A DNA stretch of 24,000 nt from Alphaproteobacteria bacterium (GCA_015231605.1 JADGBG010000004.1:44958-68957); one strand, 5' to 3'; shown: positions 4,357-24,000, counted from the first letter of the stretch. Program-made: numbers and translations. The notes: a model not told the origin generated them from the sequence alone.

Positions 4357-5232
4357 TCAGGTGAACAGGTTCATGATGGAGCCCGGCTCGATCTGTCCGC
4401 CTTCCAGGGATTTGCTCAACTGTTCGTTGGCGCTCATCCGGGCTTCGAAGGACAACGAAATCACGCGCAGGATATTCGCGTAATGGGCTTTGATGTCTTC
4501 GATTTCCGCCTCGCGGCGCGCCAATTCCACGTTCGACAGTTGGGTCATGTCGGAAAGTTTGGTGGCGAGATTGGCCGACAGGGTGAGCGAGATGTCGGAA
4601 GCGTTCTCCTTGGTGACGGAGGTGACTTCGTATGCCGTTTCGACCAAGGTCTTGAAGGTGCCCAACGTATCCAGAATTTCCCGGTTGGCGTTGGTCGCGG
4701 CGCCGGGGTCGGTTCCCTCCGGATCGACGACGCCTTCCACCGGGGCCATGTTGCGCAGGGTGGTGAGGTAATTCTTGACGTCGCGGATGATGTCCGTCTG
4801 CACGATGTCGGGATGGATGGTGATCAGCAGGCGCTCAACGTCATCCGCCACCTTGGTGATCTTCGCCGAAAGGGTTTCGACTTCGGCTGCCGTGAGGTTG
4901 GTGTCGTCGTCTCCCGCACTGAAGGCGTCGATGGCTTCCCCAACGGTGTTGGTCATCGTTTCCAGACGGGTCGCGTTGGAGATCAGTTCGGTATGGAACG
5001 AGTCGATCAGCGCCTTGTTCTTTTCGAGCTTTTGATACTCTTTCTCCAAGGCCTGCAAACGGCGCGGCGTGTCATCGTTGGCGATGACCTTGTCGATTTC
5101 CGAATTGATGCGCTTGATGGTCGTTTCCTGGATTTGGCGGAATTGCGTCTCAAATCCGAAACGAAAACTGCCCTGGGCCACCTGTGACAGGATGGTCCCG
5201 AGCTTCGCTCCATAGGTACCTAGCGGGTTCAT
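4357..5232 (-). CDS. Hypothetical all-helical 291-aa protein between flaF and flbT; possible very divergent flagellin-like protein
   Basis: This is a clean ORF with a strong SD (GGAGGTCGGGAAGA-ATG) at the MNPLGTYG start. No family motif was recognised with certainty. The C-terminal segment LSNVELARREAEIEDIKAHYANILRVISLSFEA...SIMNLFT loosely parallels the flagellin CD1/CD0 helices (D.DLAKE.A.L...Q...Q.LSIAN...ILSLFR). Confidence 0.6.
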   Translation of the reverse strand: MNPLGTYGAKLGTILSQVAQGSFRFGFETQFRQIQETTIKRINSEIDKVIANDDTPRRLQALEKEYQKLEKNKALIDSFHTELISNATRLETMTNTVGEAIDAFSAGDDDTNLTAAEVETLSAKITKVADDVERLLITIHPDIVQTDIIRDVKNYLTTLRNMAPVEGVVDPEGTDPGAATNANREILDTLGTFKTLVETAYEVTSVTKENASDISLTLSANLATKLSDMTQLSNVELARREAEIEDIKAHYANILRVISLSFEARMSANEQLSKSLEGGQIEPGSIMNLFT

Positions 5233-5365
5233 TCTTCCCGACCTCCACTTCGGGCGCTTCGCCACGCCCTCTCAACCGTTCTGGTCGATCCTATGCGACA
5301 CCCCTTAACGTAACATCAAACCTCAAGATTTTCAAGCGTAATGCGACATGAGTTTTAAGTGAGAT

Positions 5366-5394
5366 TTGATAAGATACTGCAATTATTGTATAAT
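5366..5394 (+). promoter_or_regulatory. Near-consensus sigma70-type promoter (TTGATA-17 nt-TATAAT) facing the Fic gene
   Basis: TTGATA lies at 5366-5371, followed by a 17-nt spacer and TATAAT at 5389-5394. It sits in an AT-rich trough in otherwise GC-rich DNA, about 140 nt upstream of the proposed fic start. Confidence 0.5.
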
Positions 5395-5531
5395 TATCGG
5401 AAGGAAAACACGAAAATGCTCATCGAGAAGACGCGCACATTTTCCCACAAATGCGTATTTTGGGGAATGTGTGTGGGGTTGTGAGTGAAGAAGGCCTTTT
5501 AAACACCATCAAAAAAATAGTCCATGACGTA

Positions 5532-6173
5532 ATGGAACACAATGCCATGACAGCATCCTCGAACAAGTATAGCGCCAACGACCCAGCCTTCGACGCCGAG
5601 CACGGCGTGCTGAAAAACATGCTGGGGCTCACCAGCGAGGCGGCGTTGCTGCATGCCGAAAGCGAAGCCCTGATCGCGGCCTACGAAGAGGCGGCTTTGG
5701 GGTATTCGGAGCTCCACACCTTCACGGCGGACGACGTATGCCGATTGCATAAACTGTTTCTCGGCGGCATTTTCGAGTGGGCGGGAATGTACCGCACCAT
5801 CGACATCTCGTCGCCGGGCATCCGCTGGTGCCACGCCCAATACATCGACCAGGAGATGGCGCGTTTCGACACTTTGCTACGCGCCGCAACGCCGCTCTCG
5901 CCCAATTTGCCGCATGACGAGATCATTACAAAGGTTGCGGAAATTCACGGTGAATTCATCGCCATTCACCCCTTCCGAGATGGCAATGGACGCACGGGCC
6001 GCATGCTCGCCAACCTGATGCTGATGCAGGCCGAATGCCCGCCGTTTCGCATGGAGCTGTTTGACACTGCGGAAATGCAGGAAAAATACTTCGCCGCGAT
6101 TCGTGACGTGTGGGCGAATGTGGATTACACGAAGCTCACCCGGCTTTTTGCGGAACTGGTGCCGAAGCCGTAG
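5532..6173 (+). CDS. fic: Fic-domain protein (AMPylase-type toxin, class I-like: no internal inhibitory helix motif)
   Basis: It carries the canonical active-site motif HPFRDGNGRTGR (HxFx[D/E]GNGRxxR). The overall layout resembles E. coli Fic and VbhT FIC domains (LHKLFLGGIFEWAGMYRTIDIS). No E-G or E-N dipeptide occurs anywhere in the protein. The start is uncertain: ATG at 5451, 5532 or 5547, none with a convincing SD. Confidence 0.85.
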   Translation: MEHNAMTASSNKYSANDPAFDAEHGVLKNMLGLTSEAALLHAESEALIAAYEEAALGYSELHTFTADDVCRLHKLFLGGIFEWAGMYRTIDISSPGIRWCHAQYIDQEMARFDTLLRAATPLSPNLPHDEIITKVAEIHGEFIAIHPFRDGNGRTGRMLANLMLMQAECPPFRMELFDTAEMQEKYFAAIRDVWANVDYTKLTRLFAELVPKP

Positions 6174-6942: not shown

Positions 6943-8793
6943 TTATAGGAAATTGGTCATGTTCAAATCCTTAATGCGGGCGAGAATTTCGTAGGACGCC
7001 TTGAGCGCCGTCTCCTCGGACAACATGTTGGACGCGATGGTCATGGGGTCGCCCTGCTCGATGCCGGTGATCTGCTTGTCCAGGAAACTGATGTATTTGT
7101 CGTGGCTTTTGGTGGCCTGCGAGATCATCACGCTGTGGTAGCTGATGGTCACGCTCAGCGCCTGGATGTTGCCGGTGCGCTCCGTGCCGTAGGGGGCGGA
7201 GACCGTGGTGGAGCCGTTGTAGGCGCTTTCGATCAGGTGAATGGCGTCGGTGGCGCGGGTCAGGTTCTGATCCAGGCCGCCTTCGGTGCCGTAGACGCCC
7301 TGGGCGACGATCGCCATGGCGCGGATGGCCTTTTCGAAGGCCGGGTCGAGCGCGTTGGTGTTGAAGTCGAACTTGCGCGTCTCGTCAAGACGGTGCGTCT
7401 GCGTCAACTCGTCGCCGTTGTAATAGTCCAGCGACTTGACGGTGCCGACCGCCCCGGGGATTTCCAGGGTCGTGCCCACGGGGGACGCGGCTTCGGCGGT
7501 GACGTTCTCGACCACCGTGATGGTCTTGTAATCCGACGACACTTCCTTGACGGTGAACGACGTGTTGTTGCTGGTGGTGCTGGCGAAGGTGACCTTCATG
7601 CCGGCCTTCACGTTGGTGAACACGGCCGCCGTCGACACGATGGTGTCGCTGGAGGGCGCATTGTCGGTGAACGCCAGGGCGCCGACCACGGTCGGGGACT
7701 GGATGCGCGTTTCCGTGGTGTCGCCGCTGAGCGTGGTGCCTTCGTCGGTCAAGGCTTTGCGTTCGATCTTCACCCAGGTCCCGCCCGGATCGTCCACCGA
7801 CGCGACCGTATAGGTTCCGTTGTTCTTGGCGGTGCCGGAAACGGTGAATTTGGTTCCCACCGCCAAAGACGCCAACGGAGTGGTGCCGCCAGCGGCGGTG
7901 ATCTTGTCGTCCGTGCGGGTAAAGCTGAGGTCGGTGAAATCGCCAAGAGCCGCGCTCAGTTCCGTGCCGTCGGCCAGGGTGATCTTGCCCGCCGCGTTGT
8001 TGGCTTCGTCGGTCAGCATCCGCGTTTCGACCTCGATGGTCTTGCCGCCGTTGGTGATGCTCTTGACGGTGTAGTAGCCGTTGTTGTTGGTGGTGCCGCT
8101 GACCTCGATGGTCGAGCCGACCGTCACGTTCGAGAACATCGCCGCGTCATACGCGGTGATGGAACCGTTGCTCTTGGTCGTGCCGTCGTTGTCGGCGTCG
8201 CGGCGGAACTCCAGCCAGTTGGTGTGATTGTTGCTGTCGCGGCTGAGGTCGAAGTGTTCGATGTGGGCGTCGCGGGTCGTCGGGTAGGTGACGGTCGCGC
8301 CGTTGTACTTGGTTTGGAAATCGGTCAGCGATCCCAGGTTCAGGGTTACCGGAGAGGTGTCGGTCCGCCCGCCGCCCAGAAGGGAACGTCCGCCCACGGA
8401 AATGTTCAGGTCCGCTTCCAGGGACTTGAGCGAGTTGAAGGCGAAGGTCTGGAGGTTCTTGGTAAGATCTGCCGTCTTGCCGGTTTCGTTGACGAACTTC
8501 TTCAATTCCTTTTTGAAATTGTTGATGGTCGTTTCCATGCTGGTCATGGCCTGGCTGAGGGTGTCGAGGCGCAACGTCATGGTGGTGTTGTTCAGCTTGA
8601 ACGCCTGGTAATTGTCATAAGAGGTTTCCAGCGACAACAAGTATTGCGTGCGCTTGGAAATCCCCATGTAATCCTGGGACAGATAGTTGTTGTTCGAAAG
8701 CTGCGTGCCGTAGTCCAGCATGCGCTGCTGGGTCTTCTGCATGTAGCCCAGGAACTGGGAATTGGCGGCGAGGTTCGTGATGCGGTCAACCAT
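6943..8793 (-). CDS. flgL: Flagellar hook-associated protein 3 (FlgL), enlarged 616-aa form
   Basis: It lies directly downstream of flgK, after a 24-nt gap with a GAGGAGAGGAG SD. It has flagellin-superfamily helical termini (MVDRITNLAANSQFLGYMQKTQQRMLDYGTQLS... and ...LSEETALKASYEILARIKDLNMTNFL) and a large Thr/Asn/Gly-rich central region. Confidence 0.8.
   Translation of the reverse strand: MVDRITNLAANSQFLGYMQKTQQRMLDYGTQLSNNNYLSQDYMGISKRTQYLLSLETSYDNYQAFKLNNTTMTLRLDTLSQAMTSMETTINNFKKELKKFVNETGKTADLTKNLQTFAFNSLKSLEADLNISVGGRSLLGGGRTDTSPVTLNLGSLTDFQTKYNGATVTYPTTRDAHIEHFDLSRDSNNHTNWLEFRRDADNDGTTKSNGSITAYDAAMFSNVTVGSTIEVSGTTNNNGYYTVKSITNGGKTIEVETRMLTDEANNAAGKITLADGTELSAALGDFTDLSFTRTDDKITAAGGTTPLASLAVGTKFTVSGTAKNNGTYTVASVDDPGGTWVKIERKALTDEGTTLSGDTTETRIQSPTVVGALAFTDNAPSSDTIVSTAAVFTNVKAGMKVTFASTTSNNTSFTVKEVSSDYKTITVVENVTAEAASPVGTTLEIPGAVGTVKSLDYYNGDELTQTHRLDETRKFDFNTNALDPAFEKAIRAMAIVAQGVYGTEGGLDQNLTRATDAIHLIESAYNGSTTVSAPYGTERTGNIQALSVTISYHSVMISQATKSHDKYISFLDKQITGIEQGDPMTIASNMLSEETALKASYEILARIKDLNMTNFL
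7486..8163 (-). repeat. Three tandem copies of a roughly 50-55-aa module inside the FlgL variable region (protein-level repeat)
   Basis: R1 is AMFSNVTVGSTIEVSGTTNNNGYYTVKSITNGGKTIEVETRMLTDE. R2 is LASLAVGTKFTVSGTAKNNGTYTVASVDDPGGTWVKIERKALTDE. R3 is AVFTNVKAGMKVTFASTTSNNTSFTVKEVSSDYKTITVVENVTAE. The copies map to roughly 8005-8163, 7741-7905 and 7486-7647. Confidence 0.7.
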
Positions 8794-19121: not shown

Positions 19122-19346
19122 TTAGCCTTTGAGGCCCAAGTTCTTGAAACGCTTGTTGAACTTGGCAAGCTGACCGCCGCTGTCGAGCAGACGATGGACG
19201 CCGGTCCAGGCCGGATGGGTCTTGGGATCAATGTCGAGCTTCAGGGTGTCGCCTTCCTTGCCCCAGGTCGAACGGGTCTGGAAGGTGCTGCCATCGGTCA
19301 TCACGACGGTGATCTCATGATAATCAGGGTGAATGTCTTGCTTCAT
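19122..19346 (-). CDS. rpmE: 50S ribosomal protein L31 (Cys-free form)
   Basis: The 74-aa sequence is [49 protein letters not shown]...[21 protein letters not shown] precedes it. It has no Cys residues, so there is no CxxC zinc ribbon. The 176-aa ORF in the track is an upstream read-through artefact. Confidence 0.92.
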
Positions 19347-19497
19347 CACTCGGCTCCAAAAATGAGAGCGCTTATATAACCAAGCCCGCCAGGGGACGCA
19401 AGGAATTAAAAGGATATTCGCCCGATTAATTTTTGCCCCGCGCCCGTTGTGGGGAGTAAAATGGTCAAAACCACCGCAGTTGAAGGAAAATCCGCAC

Positions 19498-19824
19498 ATG
19501 GACGCCGCCGAATTCGAAACGCTTGCCGAAGAAACCCTGGAGAATCTGTTCGATTCCGTCGAGGACATGTTGGGCCTGGACGAGGACGCGGATTTCGCCC
19601 ATGGCATCCTCAACATCGAACTTGGGGACGGACGCAAGTACGTCATCAACAAGAACTCCGCCAGCCAGGAAATCTGGGTCTCGTCGCCGGTCAGCGGCGC
19701 CAGCCACTACGCCTTTGACGCCGACAGCGGCGACTGGCTCAACACCCGGGGCGGGGGCAATCTCGTGGAGACGCTGTCCACGGAATTGTCGCGCTTGACG
19801 GGGAACACGGTCTCTCTGGGCTGA
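19498..19824 (+). CDS. cyaY: Frataxin homologue CyaY (Fe-S cluster assembly)
   Basis: The sequence [25 protein letters not shown]...[43 protein letters not shown]...[25 protein letters not shown] is collinear with E. coli CyaY. A GAAGGA SD precedes the ATG at 19498. Confidence 0.9.
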
Positions 19825-19828
19825 GACT

Positions 19829-21088
19829 TTAGTCCAGCGGCGCGTCGCGGTTTTCGTCGGCGTCGTCCGGGGCCGCCGTGGCGCTGCCGGCGGCGGCCTG
19901 CAGGGCGGCGGTTTTGGCGTCCTGATTGTCCTTGAGCGACCCGATGGCGAATGCCGACACCACCACCATCAAGCCCATGCCCGCGAAGTAGGGCCAGTCC
20001 ATGCCCAGTTGCGCGAACAGAACGCCCGCCCAGGCCGGGCCGACGACCCGCGCCATCGTGGTGGCGGAGCGGGTCACGCCCATCACTTCCCCTTGTTCGG
20101 CCGCCGACGTGCGCAACGAGATCAGGCTGTTGAGCGCGGGATTCATGACGCTGAATCCGTAAGCCACCAGCAGCATCGCGCCCACCAGCATTTCCGCGTT
20201 GTCGCAGAACGGGATGAGCCCCAGGCCCAGCCCCAGGGTGACGGACCCTTGAACGATCAGATTGCCCTCGCCGAACCGGCGGGCCATGCGCCCCACCAAG
20301 CCGCCTTGAAGGATGACGGAAGCCACCCCGATCAGGGCGAACAGGAAACCGTTTTGTTCCGGCCCCCAGCCCAATCGGCGGCTGGACCACATGGCGAAGG
20401 TGGTTTCCATGCCCGCGAATACGAACGTTGCCATGAATGAGATGGCGAGCAGCATGCCGAGGCCGGGCCGTTGCAGATTGTGGCGGATCATCGTCCAACG
20501 GCTGCGCCGGGGCGCCCTGGCCATGGCCTTGCGCATCTCCGGCGGCAAGGATTCCTTGAGCAGCAGAACCGTCAATACCAGCGCCAGGGCGGAAAGACCC
20601 GCGGCGGCGAAGGCCGGGGTCTGGTAATCGGCGGTGAGTGGATCGGGGCCCGCCAAAAGCCCGCCGATCGCCGGGCCCGCGATGAAGCCCAGTCCGAACG
20701 CCGCGCCCACCATTCCCATGCCCTTGGCACGGTTTTCCGGCGTGGTGACGTCGGCGATATAGGCGAACGCGGTGGAAATGTTGCCGGCCATCAAACCGCC
20801 CAGGATGCGCGCCGCAAACAGGATCCACAGCGCATCCGCGAACCCCAGCCAGACATAGGACGCGGCCGCGCCCGCCAGGGTGAGGATCAGCACAGGACGC
20901 CGCCCGATGGCGTCGCTCAACCGTCCCCAGAACGGCGCGGCGGCGAACTGCCCCAAGGAATAGGACGCCATGATCAGCGACACCGTGAACGGATCCGCCT
21001 GGAAGTGTTCGCCATAGAACGGCAGCAGGGGAATGACGATGCCAAAGCCCACGAGGTCGATGAATACGATGAGAAAAAGAATCAGCAT
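19829..21088 (-). CDS. MFS transporter, TetA/DHA1-like (12-TM efflux type)
   Basis: The sequence FIDLVGFGIVIPLLPFY...ASYSLGQFAAAPFWGRLSDAIGRRPVLILTLAGAA...ARILGGLMAGNISTAFAYIADVT...GAAFGLGFIAGPAIGGLL parallels the TetA class motifs (G.LSDR.GRRPVL, motif A/C). The substrate cannot be inferred. Confidence 0.85.
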   Translation of the reverse strand: MLILFLIVFIDLVGFGIVIPLLPFYGEHFQADPFTVSLIMASYSLGQFAAAPFWGRLSDAIGRRPVLILTLAGAAASYVWLGFADALWILFAARILGGLMAGNISTAFAYIADVTTPENRAKGMGMVGAAFGLGFIAGPAIGGLLAGPDPLTADYQTPAFAAAGLSALALVLTVLLLKESLPPEMRKAMARAPRRSRWTMIRHNLQRPGLGMLLAISFMATFVFAGMETTFAMWSSRRLGWGPEQNGFLFALIGVASVILQGGLVGRMARRFGEGNLIVQGSVTLGLGLGLIPFCDNAEMLVGAMLLVAYGFSVMNPALNSLISLRTSAAEQGEVMGVTRSATTMARVVGPAWAGVLFAQLGMDWPYFAGMGLMVVVSAFAIGSLKDNQDAKTAALQAAAGSATAAPDDADENRDAPLD

Positions 21089-21142
21089 GCCTGGATTTTC
21101 ATGGTCGTTCGGGGAGACGAATGCGGGACTTATAGCGCGCCG

Positions 21143-22231
21143 TCAGCGCTGTGTCAGCTTGAGTTCGATGCGCCGGTTGCGCAGCAGGGCTTCCGGGGTC
21201 GCGCCGCGTGAAAGCGGTTGGTATTCGCCGAAGCCCGCCGCCACCAGCCGGTTGGGGGGGACGCCTTGCGCGATCAGGAACTTGACCACTTCGATGGCGC
21301 GGGCGGTGCTGAGCTCCCAGTTGGACGCGAACGCGGCGGTCTTGATGGGAACGCGGTCGGTGTGGCCGTCAACGCGCAGCACCCAGTCGATGTCTTCCGG
21401 GATCTGATCCTGCAGGGCCGTGATGTGTTCGGCCAGACGGCCCAATTGTTCGTGCGCGCCGACGTTGATCCGCGCCTCGCCGCTTTCGAACAACAGTTCG
21501 GACTGGAACACGAAACGGTCTCCGACGATTTCGATGCCTTCCTGCGCGCCCAAAATCTTCGCCAGACGGCCGAAGAACTCCGAGCGGTAGGCCGAAAGCT
21601 CCATCACCTTCGACGCCAGCGCGGCGTTGAGGCGCTTGCCCAGCGACACGATCTGCGCGTTCTGTTCCTCGGCCTTGGCCTCCGACGCCTCCAGCGCCTT
21701 GTTCAGCGCCGCGATCTGGTCGCGCAATTCCGCCGTCTGGCGGTTCAGCAACGCCACCTCGGCGCGCGCGCTTTCCGAGAGTTCCTGCTCCGCCAGCAAC
21801 GCCTTGGACTTGTCGTCGACCTGGGCCGCGAGCTTGCCGATGTCGGCTTCCAATTGGCTTTTCAGCGCCTCCAGCTTCACCACGTCGCCGACCAGCCGGG
21901 TGATTTCCGCCGCGCCGTTTTCCACGTCCAGCTTGAGGCGGTCCGTTTCGGCGATGCTGGCCTGAAGTTCGCCGGAAAGCCGGCTGACGTCGCCGCGCAG
22001 GTTGGCGTTGGATTTCTTTTCCAGCGCCAGCAGGTCGACCAGTTCGGCGACTTCCTTGTCCAGCTTCTCCAGCGCGCTTTCCCGGCCCGACAGCGCCTCG
22101 CCCAGAAAGAACTGGGCCAGCACGAACACCAGCAGCAAGAAGATGATGACCATCAGCAAGGACGCCAGCGCGTCCACGAAGCCCGGCCAGATGTCGGAGC
22201 GATGGCGGTTGCGGCGGGCCAGGGCGGGCAT
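21143..22231 (-). CDS. MotB-family protein: N-terminal TM helix with conserved Asp, roughly 170-aa coiled coil, C-terminal OmpA/MotB peptidoglycan-binding domain
   Basis: The segment SDIWPGFVDALASLLMVIIFLLLVF can be compared with E. coli MotB [20 protein letters not shown]; the Asp at residue 20 sits at the equivalent position. Residues about 45-215 are heptad-like and E/L/A/K-rich. The C-terminus reads LRVDGHTDRVPI...SNWELSTARAIEVVKFLIAQGVPPNRLVAAGFGEYQP...NRRIELKL. A GGAGG SD precedes the ATG. Confidence 0.8.
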   Translation of the reverse strand: MPALARRNRHRSDIWPGFVDALASLLMVIIFLLLVFVLAQFFLGEALSGRESALEKLDKEVAELVDLLALEKKSNANLRGDVSRLSGELQASIAETDRLKLDVENGAAEITRLVGDVVKLEALKSQLEADIGKLAAQVDDKSKALLAEQELSESARAEVALLNRQTAELRDQIAALNKALEASEAKAEEQNAQIVSLGKRLNAALASKVMELSAYRSEFFGRLAKILGAQEGIEIVGDRFVFQSELLFESGEARINVGAHEQLGRLAEHITALQDQIPEDIDWVLRVDGHTDRVPIKTAAFASNWELSTARAIEVVKFLIAQGVPPNRLVAAGFGEYQPLSRGATPEALLRNRRIELKLTQR

Positions 22232-22245
22232 CGGGGGCCTCCCGC

Positions 22246-23466
22246 CTAGTTGTCGGCGCGGCCCGCGACGGTGCGGGCCAGAAGTTTGATTTCACTGCGC
22301 ACCTGATTGGCCAGGTCCTCGCGCCCGGTGCGCGTTTCCTCCAACAGGCGGGACACGCACAGATCGATGTTGCGGATATGCTGGCGGGTCGCCCCGTCCA
22401 TCTCGCCACGGCCCGCGCCGCTCCCGCCCTCGGCGCTGGAGATGCGCTCCAGGACCGGTTTCAGGTCCATGTGGGTTTCCGCCAGCTTCTTCATGATGAC
22501 CTGTTCGGTCTGCATGTAGTCGGTGATGGTGCTCATCTTGTCCGACAGCAGGCGCAGCGCCTCGCTGGTCTGGATGCGCGATTCCTCGCCCCGCGCCAGG
22601 GTGCGCTGGAGGTTTTCCAGGCTTTCCGCGGTCTGCTCCAGCAATGCTTCGACGTAGGCCGGAACGGTCTGCTCGCCGTCCGAGCCCAAGGAACCGCCCG
22701 ACAGCTTCGCCAGTCCCGCCAACCAGTCTTCCAATTCGGTGTAGAAGCGGTTCTGCGCCTGACCGGTGGTGAGGTCGAGGAACCCCAGGATCAAGGACCC
22801 CGAGAGGCCGAACAGCGAGCTGGAAAACGCCGTGCCCATGCCCGCCAGCGGCGCTTCCAGGCCCCGCTTCAACTCGTCGAACATGACGGTGATGTCCGCG
22901 CCCCCGCCCACCTGGATGTTGGCGATGACATCGCGGATGGCGGCGAGCGTGTCCAGCAGTCCCCAGAACGTGCCCAGGAGGCCCAGGAACACCAGCAGAC
23001 CGATGGTGTAGCGGGAAATGTCGCGCGCTTCGTCCAGGCGGCTGGCGACCCCGTCCAGGACGGAACGCAACGCCATGGCGCTCAGCTTGATCTGCGTGCG
23101 GCCGCCCACCATGGCGGCCAGCGGGGCCAGCATGCGGGGCGAAACATCGACGGGGCGCGGCTTGGCGTTCCCCTTGGGTCTCGGGGGCCGCGGTTCGGAG
23201 GACGCCACCAACGGTTCGGCAATGAGGTCCTGAGACAACGCGTGGCTTTCGCGGAACGCATCGATCCACGTCACTTCCGGGCGCAGTTGGATGACTTGCC
23301 GGAAATTGTAGGCCATGCCCAACAGGAACACGCCGACGATCAGACCGTTCAAGGGGGCGTTGGTCATGAACGCGGTCAGCAGCGGCTGATGAACCGCCGC
23401 CATGGCCGCGCCGACCGCGGCCAGGAACAGGGCCATGCGGATCAGAAAGCGAAGAGGATTGGACAT
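22246..23466 (-). CDS. MotA/TolQ/ExbB-family proton-channel protein with a roughly 170-aa C-terminal helical extension (406 aa)
   Basis: It has four predicted TM helices. The family signature appears as YTIGLLVFLGLLGTFWGLLDTL and LEAPLAGMGTAFSSSLFGLSGSLILGFL. The TM2-TM3 loop is Pro/Lys-rich, and the long tail (ELEDWLAGL...LLARTVAGRADN) is absent from canonical MotA/ExbB/TolQ. Confidence 0.75.
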   Translation of the reverse strand: MSNPLRFLIRMALFLAAVGAAMAAVHQPLLTAFMTNAPLNGLIVGVFLLGMAYNFRQVIQLRPEVTWIDAFRESHALSQDLIAEPLVASSEPRPPRPKGNAKPRPVDVSPRMLAPLAAMVGGRTQIKLSAMALRSVLDGVASRLDEARDISRYTIGLLVFLGLLGTFWGLLDTLAAIRDVIANIQVGGGADITVMFDELKRGLEAPLAGMGTAFSSSLFGLSGSLILGFLDLTTGQAQNRFYTELEDWLAGLAKLSGGSLGSDGEQTVPAYVEALLEQTAESLENLQRTLARGEESRIQTSEALRLLSDKMSTITDYMQTEQVIMKKLAETHMDLKPVLERISSAEGGSGAGRGEMDGATRQHIRNIDLCVSRLLEETRTGREDLANQVRSEIKLLARTVAGRADN

Positions 23467-23505
23467 CTGTTCGGGTTCCCTCGCCGGTCCGATCCGACCG
23501 CCCAG

Positions 23506-24000
23506 TTAGCGTTCGACCACGGTGATATCGACCCGCTCGGTGATTTCGTCGGTCGTCTTGTTGCCGAGCGCGCGCACGTCGATGCGCGTCGAGCGCACGC
23601 CGTTTTCGATCAGGAACGAGCGCACCGCAAGCGCGCGCGACAGGGAAAGGCGCCGCGCCGCGCTGGCGGACGTCTGGGCGTCGCCGGCGAAGGCCTTGAG
23701 CTGAATGCGCAGCCCCTTTTGCGACTGCATCTTCTCGCTGATGGCGCTGAGCGCCGCGCGGGTCTGTTGCGGCAGTTTCGAGGACTCCGCGTCGAACACG
23801 ATGCGGAAATTGTCGCCGTCGGCCAGATCGCCCGTGGGCGGGGTCAGCGCGGCCAGTTGATCTTGCGGGATTGCGGGCGGCAAATCCACGACCGTTTCGC
23901 CGGGGGTCTCGGCGGGCGCCAGGGGTTCGGCCGGTTCCGCGGACGACGGCGGGATCAGAGCGCCCGGCATGGGCGCGGGGGGCATCGCGGGGGCGGGCGC
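23506..24000 (-). CDS. Pro/Ala-rich protein with C-terminal OmpA-like domain; the 5' end probably lies outside the window
   Basis: The C-terminus reads FRIVFDAESSKLPQQTRAALSAISEKM...RIQLKAFAGD...ARRLSLSRALAVRSFLIENGV...RIDVRALG, following the OmpA_C-like pattern. The frame stays open (APAPA) to position 24000. This is the first gene of the three-gene operon. Confidence 0.6.
   Translation of the reverse strand, partial: APAPAMPPAPMPGALIPPSSAEPAEPLAPAETPGETVVDLPPAIPQDQLAALTPPTGDLADGDNFRIVFDAESSKLPQQTRAALSAISEKMQSQKGLRIQLKAFAGDAQTSASAARRLSLSRALAVRSFLIENGVRSTRIDVRALGNKTTDEITERVDITVVER

Follow-up and report, generated by a model that had tools for sequence, protein, structure and literature searches.

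The subject of this report is a three-gene operon on the minus strand (positions 21143-24000) of a 24,000-nucleotide (nt) stretch of DNA from an alphaproteobacterium (Alphaproteobacteria bacterium, GCA_015231605.1, JADGBG010000004.1:44958-68957; the whole stretch is hereafter called the window). Its second and third genes encode the A and B subunits of a predicted member of the 5:2 ion-driven motor superfamily, which includes MotAB, ExbBD, TolQR and ZorAB, and its first gene encodes an OmpA-like protein. We propose, at a rough probability of 0.55, that the A-B pair is a non-flagellar, vertically inherited alphaproteobacterial rotary motor of A5B2 composition, which is anchored to the cell wall and exerts its output through the action of the cytoplasmic tail of A on a partner encoded elsewhere. 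The observations that carry this proposal are the invariant aspartate in the transmembrane (TM) helix of B, the coiled-coil stalk that links this helix to the wall-binding domain, the conserved synteny of the locus, and the coexistence of the orphan A subunit with a canonical MotA in two genomes. The resulting architecture unites an A subunit of four helices and a short ZorA-like tail with a B subunit whose stalk varies in length by heptads and with an optional secreted OmpA-like partner.

The A subunit is encoded by gene 2 (22246..23466, 406 residues), a divergent channel protein of the MotA/ExbB/ZorA superfamily on the evidence of ZorA profiles and homologue clusters, and the B subunit by gene 3 (21143..22231, 362 residues), which is of the MotB type. 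Gene 1 is present as a 3' fragment (23506..24000) that encodes the C-terminal 164 residues of its product, namely a Pro/Ala-rich linker and an OmpA-like domain (Pfam OmpA, 5e-14); its reading frame lacks a stop codon up to base 24000, where the end of the window cuts the gene. The spacer between genes 1 and 2 (23467..23505, 39 nt) contains a Shine-Dalgarno-like GAGGGA 10 nt ahead of the ATG of gene 2, and that between genes 2 and 3 (22232..22245, 14 nt) contains a GGGAGG 6 nt ahead of the ATG of gene 3; inspection of the spacers placed no terminator-like site convincingly between the operon genes. The initial annotation of this DNA, made by reading the sequence, had likewise described three co-directional genes with gaps of 39 and 14 nt and ribosome-binding sites of their own, the first of them encoding a Pro/Ala-rich protein with a terminal OmpA-like domain; the gaps, the sites ahead of genes 2 and 3 and the OmpA-like domain agree with our analysis, and the motifs that it quoted, GLLGTFWGLLDTL and TAFSSSLFGLSGSLILGF from A and FVD20ALASLL from B, are present in genes 2 and 3, respectively. 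Searches of Pfam recover MotA_ExbB as a borderline match for gene 2 and OmpA as a match for genes 1 and 3. Protein database searches with A and with B each return at least 8000 matches, homologues of A form 516 clusters, and wherever a related locus extends far enough to include it, B is the gene directly downstream of A; these genes are therefore real and not chance open reading frames. A and B are thus encoded by adjacent, co-oriented genes, as is the case in the 5:2 motors. A gene for a major facilitator superfamily (MFS) transporter that follows B after a gap of 54 nt was considered as a fourth member of the operon and rejected: it is found after B in just 13 of the 79 loci with room for it, which mostly belong to closer relatives, and it does not adjoin B in Sinorhizobium meliloti, and we accordingly place it outside the core gene set.

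The B subunit scores 447.5 bits against the NCBIfam model NF006543 (PRK09039.1-2), well beyond the equivalog cut-off of 305, with an alignment that spans residues 3-362 of 362. By this measure it is classified as an equivalog of the NF006543/PRK09039 family, which is annotated as 'peptidoglycan-binding protein', a generic name that conveys no function. In addition, B matches Pfam OmpA (2.3e-16), several coiled-coil families of Pfam and the PADLOC model ZorB3 (1.2e-21). Its single TM helix (residues 15-40; 22112..22189) bears the motif WPGFVD, in which the codon of Asp20 is GAC (22174..22172). This aspartate, originally singled out as occupying the position of the proton-binding residue of MotB, TolR and ExbD, is kept in all 84 loci compared, 81 of 81 that were aligned by tblastn without a motif filter and three that were read directly, and the whole segment from W15 to D20 is invariant in the alignment of B (A3). 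Hence, B possesses the N-terminal TM helix with a conserved Asp that characterizes the 5:2 superfamily. Four arginines precede this helix, suggesting that the N-terminus of B is cytoplasmic. At the other end of the protein lies a predicted MotB-type OmpA-like peptidoglycan-binding domain (residues 233-362; 21146..21535), whose best relatives among solved structures are MotS (4.8e-26), MotB (8e-24) and PomB (1.5e-16). It is modeled by AlphaFold as an α/β fold with predicted local distance difference test (pLDDT) values of 80-90, and its invariant residues (G289, H290, D292, N304, W305, E306, L307, S308 and R311) form a GH.D ... NWELS..R signature. The description of gene 3 as a MotB-type protein with a proton-site Asp, a coiled coil and an OmpA domain is hence borne out throughout.

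Between the TM helix and the wall-binding domain B contains a periplasmic coiled-coil stalk (residues 41-230; 21542..22111), which is devoid of proline and would measure approximately 26 nm if extended. In the AlphaFold2 model of B a helix that runs on from the TM segment (residues 16-138) is followed by a break at 139-144 and a second helix (145-227), after which the OmpA fold begins. The lengths of B homologues (348, 355, 362, 369, 376, 397, 411, 418, 425 and 432 residues) pointed to variation in steps of a heptad, and the stalk itself was measured as the spacing between the TM Asp and YRSEFF, a conserved motif at the base of the OmpA module. These spacings take values such as 174, 181, 188, 195 (the B protein of the window) and 202, and range up to 608; they leave a remainder of 6 upon division by 7 in 163 of 190 homologues. 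Counted by distinct values, 30 of 50 spacings fall into this class against an expectation of one in seven (binomial P of about 1e-13, with the qualification that the sequences are not independent), and the next class, with a remainder of 3, is the one expected for a coiled-coil stutter. In closer relatives the insertions and deletions of whole heptads are concentrated at a hot spot (residues 101-106; 21914..21931), where deletions of 7 and 14 residues and insertions of 7, 14, 35, 49, 56, 63, 70, 84 and 112 residues are seen, the exceptions being one insertion of 3 and one deletion of 4; a further insertion, of 42 residues, is located at residue 147. The region around and following the hot spot (residues 101-144) is the least conserved part of B, with a mean identity of 0.23 across 68 genomes, as against 0.57 for the distal coiled coil (145-230). 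The break at 139-144 in the monomer model had raised the alternative of an antiparallel hairpin; this was discarded because the first helix takes up insertions of 7-112 residues at one site while the second stays unchanged, and large insertions in one helix of a folded-back hairpin would require a matching change in the other. The stalk is instead a canonical coiled coil without interruption, in which two chains presumably run in parallel. Across the homologues its extended length ranges from about 23 to 87 nm. The original idea that such a coiled coil could span much of the periplasm is upheld with respect to the presence of a true, heptad-wise coiled coil, but weakened with respect to the span, because a 3.8-fold range of lengths indicates that the stalk is not a ruler for the width of the periplasm.

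The A subunit is very divergent within the MotA/ExbB superfamily, and ZorA emerges from the profile searches as its best relative. Its match to Pfam MotA_ExbB (2.3e-4, 21.4 bits) falls just below the cut-off of 22.9 bits, whereas the PADLOC model ZorA1 is matched at 3.6e-12 over residues 151-311, with ZorA3 also among the best matches. The same trend holds in the family at large: all 101 aligned homologues of A match ZorA profiles of PADLOC, and 91 of these 101 match MotA_ExbB weakly (E<=0.01). None of the MotA, TolQ and ExbB models of NCBIfam matches A at E<=0.1, the sole match in that collection being a weak one to ZorA, and alignment of the family profile with E. coli MotA by hhalign gave a probability of 7% with the helices mis-paired. 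Together, these matches argue for the presence in A of the MotA/ExbB channel core of the superfamily, i.e. the last two TM helices. This core maps to residues 151-235 (22762..23016), the region covered by the MotA_ExbB and ZorA profiles, and comprises TM3, a periplasmic loop and TM4 (FLGLLGTFWGLL ... GMGTAFSSSLFGLSGSLILGFLDL), with T166, S215 and S217 invariant in the alignment of A. The best-conserved parts of A, by mean identity across the 68 genomes, are TM4 (0.79), a stretch of the tail at residues 268-300 (0.71) and TM3 (0.69).

Hydropathy analysis identifies two strong hydrophobic segments in A (residues 7-25 and 153-171), and the other two TM helices are predicted from the AlphaFold helices together with homology; the four-TM protein of the initial annotation accordingly stands as regards its MotA/ExbB-type core, but two of its four helices are of this less direct kind. 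The AlphaFold2 monomer of A consists of helices at 4-33, 37-82, 114-120, 130-183, 192-257, 268-347 and 358-405, the first two of which, with the hydropathy peak at 7-25, would form a TM1-TM2 hairpin (residues 7-55; 23302..23448) corresponding to the N-terminal pair of MotA. Arginines are found both before (R6/R10) and after (R56/R62) this hairpin, which suggests that both its ends are cytoplasmic and hence that the loop at residues 56-150 and the tail are probably cytoplasmic as well. The topology of A would thus be the MotA-like one of four helices. The last three helices of the model (192-257, 268-347 and 358-405) extend into the tail of about 170 residues (236-406; 22249..22761), and its helical nature accords with the original description. 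The accompanying view that the extensions of this system are distributed differently from those of Zorya calls for refinement with regard to A, given that the ZorA1 match extends for about 80 residues into the tail, up to residue 311, and ZorA is matched by every one of the aligned homologues. The tail of A has the look of a ZorA-type tail in shortened form, not of a separate arrangement, and since the conservation of residues 236-300, notably the identity at 268-300, matches that of the TM core, the start of the tail appears to be constrained as much as the channel. Members of the A family, which in cluster searches are mostly 350-440 residues long, bear inconsistent names in public databases (e.g. 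P0197, P0215 and P0235; P0001, P0009 and others); the chemoreceptor label on some of them probably derives from the helical tail, and similarity to chemoreceptors has been described for the tail of ZorA (PMC11946911).

The product of gene 1 was described in full from three related loci (L082:8281-9882, L083:8675-9952 and L084:8876-9937), as the N-terminal part of the gene lies beyond the end of the window. The full-length relatives (353-533 residues) contain a Sec signal peptide with an AxA|Q cleavage site, a VxVDLSVL motif, a Pro/Ala-rich region and a C-terminal OmpA-like domain. The motif, in the form VxVDLSVL(D/N/E), lies no more than about 20 residues from the cleavage site and is followed by the Pro/Ala linker of several hundred residues; under a strict pattern it is present in at least 19 of 47 full-length homologues, and it looks like a docking peptide. 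A weak match to the NCBIfam model of MotY (2.4e-5) was also recovered. Of 78 loci, at least 60 have a homologue of gene 1 immediately upstream of A, and in most loci from Acetobacteraceae this gene and the start of A share 4 nt; among the loci compared, Sinorhizobium and several other clades lack it beside A. Consequently, of the trio that had been proposed as a unit, the A-B pair is conserved throughout and gene 1 in most clades though not all: A-B alone is universal and gene 1 is an accessory partner. A public contig with the same genes (GCA_015231505.1, JADGBJ010000012.1; L081:3-488) ends 4 bases before the end of the window, and the gene 1 product differs by one residue between the window (AEPAEPLAP) and that contig (AEPAEPPAP).

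A scan with one genome per species detected relatives of A in at least 583 species genomes. The best 80 of these are, judging by record titles, essentially all from Alphaproteobacteria, with the exception of a few oddly labelled metagenome bins, and include Rhodospirillales, Acetobacteraceae, Azospirillum, Kiloniella, Thalassospira and some Hyphomicrobiales. An HMMER search with A against 1.84 billion representative sequences recovered 516 clusters (at 50% identity) at E<=1e-30 and 1506 at E<=1e-10. The neighborhood survey showed that the A-B pair occupies a shared setting between suhB and rpmE in Rhodospirillales as well as in Sinorhizobium. The genes of Varunaivibrio, Magnetovibrio and a third genome (L082-L084) are arranged as thiE, efp, suhB, gene 1, A, B, the MFS gene, (cyaY), rpmE, cyclase and hsp20 ... 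DUF1192, and those of S. meliloti (L085) as thiE, sel1, suhB, A (368 residues), B (342 residues), an ABC transporter and rpmE ... DUF1192; the B orthologue of S. meliloti is listed under CAC47355.1 and Q92JX6. The block thiE-(efp)-suhB, A-B, ... rpmE ... DUF1192 is thereby common to the two groups (L082-L085; window 19122-24000), and in the closer relatives it also contains the MFS gene, cyaY, a class III nucleotidyl cyclase gene and hsp20. That two orders share one housekeeping neighborhood suggests that the locus was inherited vertically from an early alphaproteobacterium. The S. meliloti locus (CP090106.1 3079190-3091999) belongs to a 3.7-Mb replicon that PLSDB labels 'plasmid pSymB'; as it bears rpmE, purE, suhB and thiE it looks chromosomal, and other multi-megabase PLSDB 'plasmids' (from E. 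coli, Proteus and Shinella) also have the appearance of chromosomes.

Flagellar genes are close to the pair in the window's own genome alone among the loci compared. There they start about 6 kb from the operon, beyond the MFS gene, cyaY, rpmE, cyclase, hsp20 and dksA, in agreement with the earlier remark that housekeeping genes separate the two; no flagellar gene lies within 10 kb of the pair in L082, L083 and L084, or within 6 kb in L085. Equally, the absence of adjacent Ton, Tol and Zorya effector genes was noted at the outset, and the inspected neighborhoods, in which housekeeping genes are seen, agree with this. Clades that lack gene 1 (L014, L050 and S. meliloti) were inspected for neighbors that might hint at a function, and housekeeping genes alone were seen.

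A survey of the literature on PRK09039, on alphaproteobacterial MotAB-like systems and on 5:2 motors yielded no description of this family as a distinct motor. The part of a 2025 survey of MotAB evolution consulted here (PMC12505986) distinguishes flagellar from 'generic' ion transporters and describes the generic B proteins as devoid of OmpA-homologous domains, a class into which the present family does not fit, since its B subunit carries a clear MotB-type OmpA domain; in that part of the survey the non-flagellar homologues are grouped broadly and the architecture of the window is not singled out. The family is uncharacterized in terms of mechanism, but it is annotated (NF006543/PRK09039) and its probable orthologues in Komagataeibacter hansenii have already been manipulated. 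Jacek et al. 2019 (PMC6570709) overexpressed the only 'motA' (348 residues) and 'motB' (321 residues) of this bacterium, which they describe as lacking flagella. Their primers encode the MotA start VTRPTTY and the MotB end EFRLTDR*, which match family termini, i.e. the A N-terminus MTRPTTY (P0107) and the Acetobacteraceae B C-terminus RIELRLTDR, and the proteins in their BLAST table are of one kind with the homologues found here; the K. hansenii motA and motB are therefore probable orthologues of the A-B pair. Upon overexpression the cells became elongated, colony spreading increased threefold and the cellulose was looser, and green fluorescent protein (GFP) fusions were polar (PMC6570709); disruption mutants were also obtained and made denser cellulose (PMC7347698). 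The study handled the genes as flagellar-type motility genes and did not recognize a separate motor family (PMC6570709). The Rgs polar-growth proteins of S. meliloti were also considered as a possible identity of the pair and set aside, as their description (PMC7327166) mentions no MotA, OmpA or ExbB and the SMc numbers differ.

Under the rotary proposal, two B chains would sit inside a ring of A, where Asp20 would take up periplasmic protons via a polar path formed by T166 and S215/S217 of A. The B dimer would leave the membrane as one parallel coiled coil, about 26 nm long in the B protein of the window, and end in the peptidoglycan-binding domain. The simplest reading of a subunit that ends in a MotB-type wall-binding domain is that B is the fixed part and that proton flow turns the A ring around it. 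The start of the A tail is the best-conserved non-membrane element of the protein and is profile-homologous to the start of the ZorA tail; for this reason we take the tail as the output, as has been proposed for the tail of ZorA, and it would act on a partner encoded elsewhere. The secreted gene 1 protein would probably keep the wall-bound end of B in place or help to set its position, much as MotY does with PomB, and is dispensable in some clades. The role of such a motor would most likely be a housekeeping one, in the envelope, at the cell pole or in cell length, with swimming or phage defence unlikely.

Several observations weigh against the rotary proposal. The A5B2 stoichiometry is assumed by analogy with the superfamily, and two profiles of the A family (A1 and A2) find no solved chain of MotA, PomA, ExbB, TolQ, ZorA or GldL at E<=10, so that there is no structure-anchored alignment of the pore residues. 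The AlphaFold2 model of A is of moderate quality (pLDDT 69.5, predicted template modelling score 0.35), and a Foldseek search with it gave no significant match, the top membrane protein being Shewanella ZorA (8vvn_D, E 0.96, probability 0.72), followed at likewise non-significant values by ExbB and then TolQ. No partner for the A tail was seen near the genes in any clade examined. The wall-anchored geometry of a stator is hard to place, because the distance from the inner membrane to the peptidoglycan is roughly 9 nm in E. coli (PMC11946911) and all the stalks (23-87 nm) exceed it. Finally, the connection with K. hansenii is based on termini of 7 residues that were read from primers rather than on full sequences, and the bearing of its phenotypes, which stem from overexpression, is indirect.

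Of the other interpretations, the names MotA and MotB given by NCBI and JGI to family members, among them 'flagellar motor protein MotA', imply an alternative or auxiliary flagellar stator, i.e. a paralogue of MotAB. The pair does share with MotAB, PomAB and MotPS the A-B gene order, the four-TM A and the N-terminal TM helix of B with its essential Asp; the peptidoglycan-binding domain of B is nearest to those of the flagellar MotS, MotB and PomB, the gene 1 product loosely resembles MotY in being an OmpA-like periplasmic accessory, the flagellar genes of the window are about 6 kb away, and the GFP fusions in K. hansenii are polar. Unlike in MotA, however, the cytoplasmic loop of A has no detectable similarity to the torque-generating domain, and unlike in MotB a long coiled coil takes the place of the short plug and linker. 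There is also no conserved linkage to flagellar genes, the proximity seen in the window being lost in L082-L085, and the results with the MotA-specific NCBIfam models and with hhalign speak against a stator, as does the occurrence of probable orthologues in Komagataeibacter, which according to the authors has no flagella. A canonical MotA is encoded on the same replicon as the orphan A in two genomes, at 0.57 Mb versus 2.84 Mb in Sinorhizobium sp. C101 (where it shares 44% identity with E. coli MotA across 95% of its length) and at 4.50 Mb versus 2.53 Mb in Shinella sp. PSBB067, so that the non-flagellar nature ascribed to the pair from the start is supported. The A-B pair is very probably not a flagellar stator, and we regard that role as highly improbable. 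ZorAB, of which A5B2 structures from E. coli and Shewanella have been solved by cryo-EM, is the motor core of the Zorya systems, in which it is joined by ZorC/ZorD (type I), ZorE (type II) or ZorF/ZorG (type III). An anti-phage sensor of the Zorya type, with its effector genes elsewhere in the genome, would accommodate the best profile matches of A (ZorA1 and ZorA3) and the match of B to ZorB3; moreover, as in ZorAB, A continues from its last TM helix into a cytoplasmic helical tail that begins like that of ZorA, and B combines an Asp-bearing TM helix with an OmpA-like peptidoglycan-binding domain. Yet the tail is about 170 residues long as against about 500 in E. coli ZorA, in which every truncation of the tail abolished defence (PMC11946911). 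Further, A has a MotA-like N-terminal hairpin and four helices where ZorA has three TM helices, and B has a coiled coil, of 150-590 residues across the family, that ZorB lacks. No homologues of ZorC, ZorD, ZorE, ZorF or ZorG are adjacent to the pair, PADLOC matches being limited to the ZorA and ZorB models, and the neighbors checked for Zorya genes (suhB, efp, MFS, cyaY, rpmE, ABC transporter and xerC/D-like genes) are housekeeping ones. The locus is in addition vertically inherited, syntenic across orders and very widespread, in contrast to the patchy distribution of Zorya defence islands, and a role in phage sensing thus seems remote.

A periplasmic force transducer of the Tol/Ton/GldLM type, in which the A ring would stay still and the B dimer with its stalk would pass proton-driven movement or tension on to the wall or outer membrane, with the gene 1 protein as the distal partner and a role in envelope integrity, constriction or polar remodelling, is a more serious contender, although we still consider it somewhat unlikely. 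TolQR-TolA-Pal and ExbBD-TonB are proton-driven motors of the 5:2 type that have the TM motif LGLLGTxWG, of the ExbB/TolQ kind, in common with A, and their architectural elements (a long periplasmic helix, a Pro-rich spacer and an OmpA-like wall binder) all recur here. In particular, B unites a TolR/MotB-like TM helix with its Asp, a TolA-like long periplasmic helix and a Pal-like OmpA domain, the distal coiled coil is well conserved, the Pro/Ala spacer of gene 1 recalls the linkers of TonB and TolA, and its N-terminal motif could dock on a partner; the elongation of K. hansenii cells upon overexpression was also likened by the authors to the effect of overexpressing TolQR (PMC6570709). Against this, the elements are arranged unlike in Tol/Ton, with the helix and the OmpA domain fused to B and the Pro-rich spacer placed on a secreted protein that has no TM anchor. 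The TolQ, TolR, ExbB and ExbD models of NCBIfam have no match in the pair, and none of the adjacent genes encodes TolA, TolB, Pal or TonB. The peptidoglycan-binding tip argues for a fixed B, the 3.8-fold variation of the stalk and its poorly conserved middle are more in keeping with a tether than with a calibrated shaft, Sinorhizobium and other clades lack gene 1, and the strong conservation of the A tail would be left without explanation. As the defining features of the flagellar-stator, Zorya and Tol/Ton families were each looked for and not found, the pair is placed outside all three. Readings other than those considered here are collectively given a small share of the probability, less than the transducer and more than either the stator or the phage sensor.

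The remainder of the window offers some further observations. The stretch 5001-6173, which lies between the flagellar and cytidylyltransferase genes, has the lowest GC content of the window (0.53 versus about 0.62) and contains on the plus strand a gene for a Fic/DOC-domain protein (5451-6173; Pfam 1.9e-19); it may be a small acquired insert. On the minus strand an open reading frame of 616 codons (6943-8793), with no Pfam match at 1e-5, is situated directly downstream of flgK, the usual place of flgL. Also on the minus strand, and adjoining the flagellar cluster, is a gene for a protein of 614 residues (101-1945) with an N-terminal CMP-sugar cytidylyltransferase domain (CTP_transf_3, 1.9e-28), which may be involved in flagellin glycosylation.

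To our knowledge, the types of 5:2 motor with a known output are few, namely those of flagellar rotation, Ton-dependent uptake, Tol-Pal, gliding/type IX secretion and Zorya. The A-B family is large and ancient, and its presence in tractable bacteria such as Sinorhizobium, Azospirillum and Komagataeibacter makes the search for its output a testable project, in which the heptad-quantized stalk provides a natural length series for the effect of the tether on a wall-anchored motor. In the meantime the labels 'flagellar motor protein MotA' and 'chemotaxis MotB', carried by its members in many genomes, can mislead predictions of motility, and the results of cellulose engineering in K. hansenii may need reinterpretation, because the 'motAB' studied there is probably the A-B motor and not a flagellar remnant. 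More tentatively, we can envisage the pair as an ancient housekeeping relative of the Zorya motor in alphaproteobacteria, a wall-tethered proton rotor whose short, highly conserved tail would turn or signal to a partner and thereby control a basic property of the cell, for instance its length, the identity of its poles or the condition of its envelope. Were this so, the 5:2 motor with a cytoplasmic-tail output would be a general cellular device, from which Zorya would have arisen as a defence offshoot, or of which the A-B family is a domesticated version.

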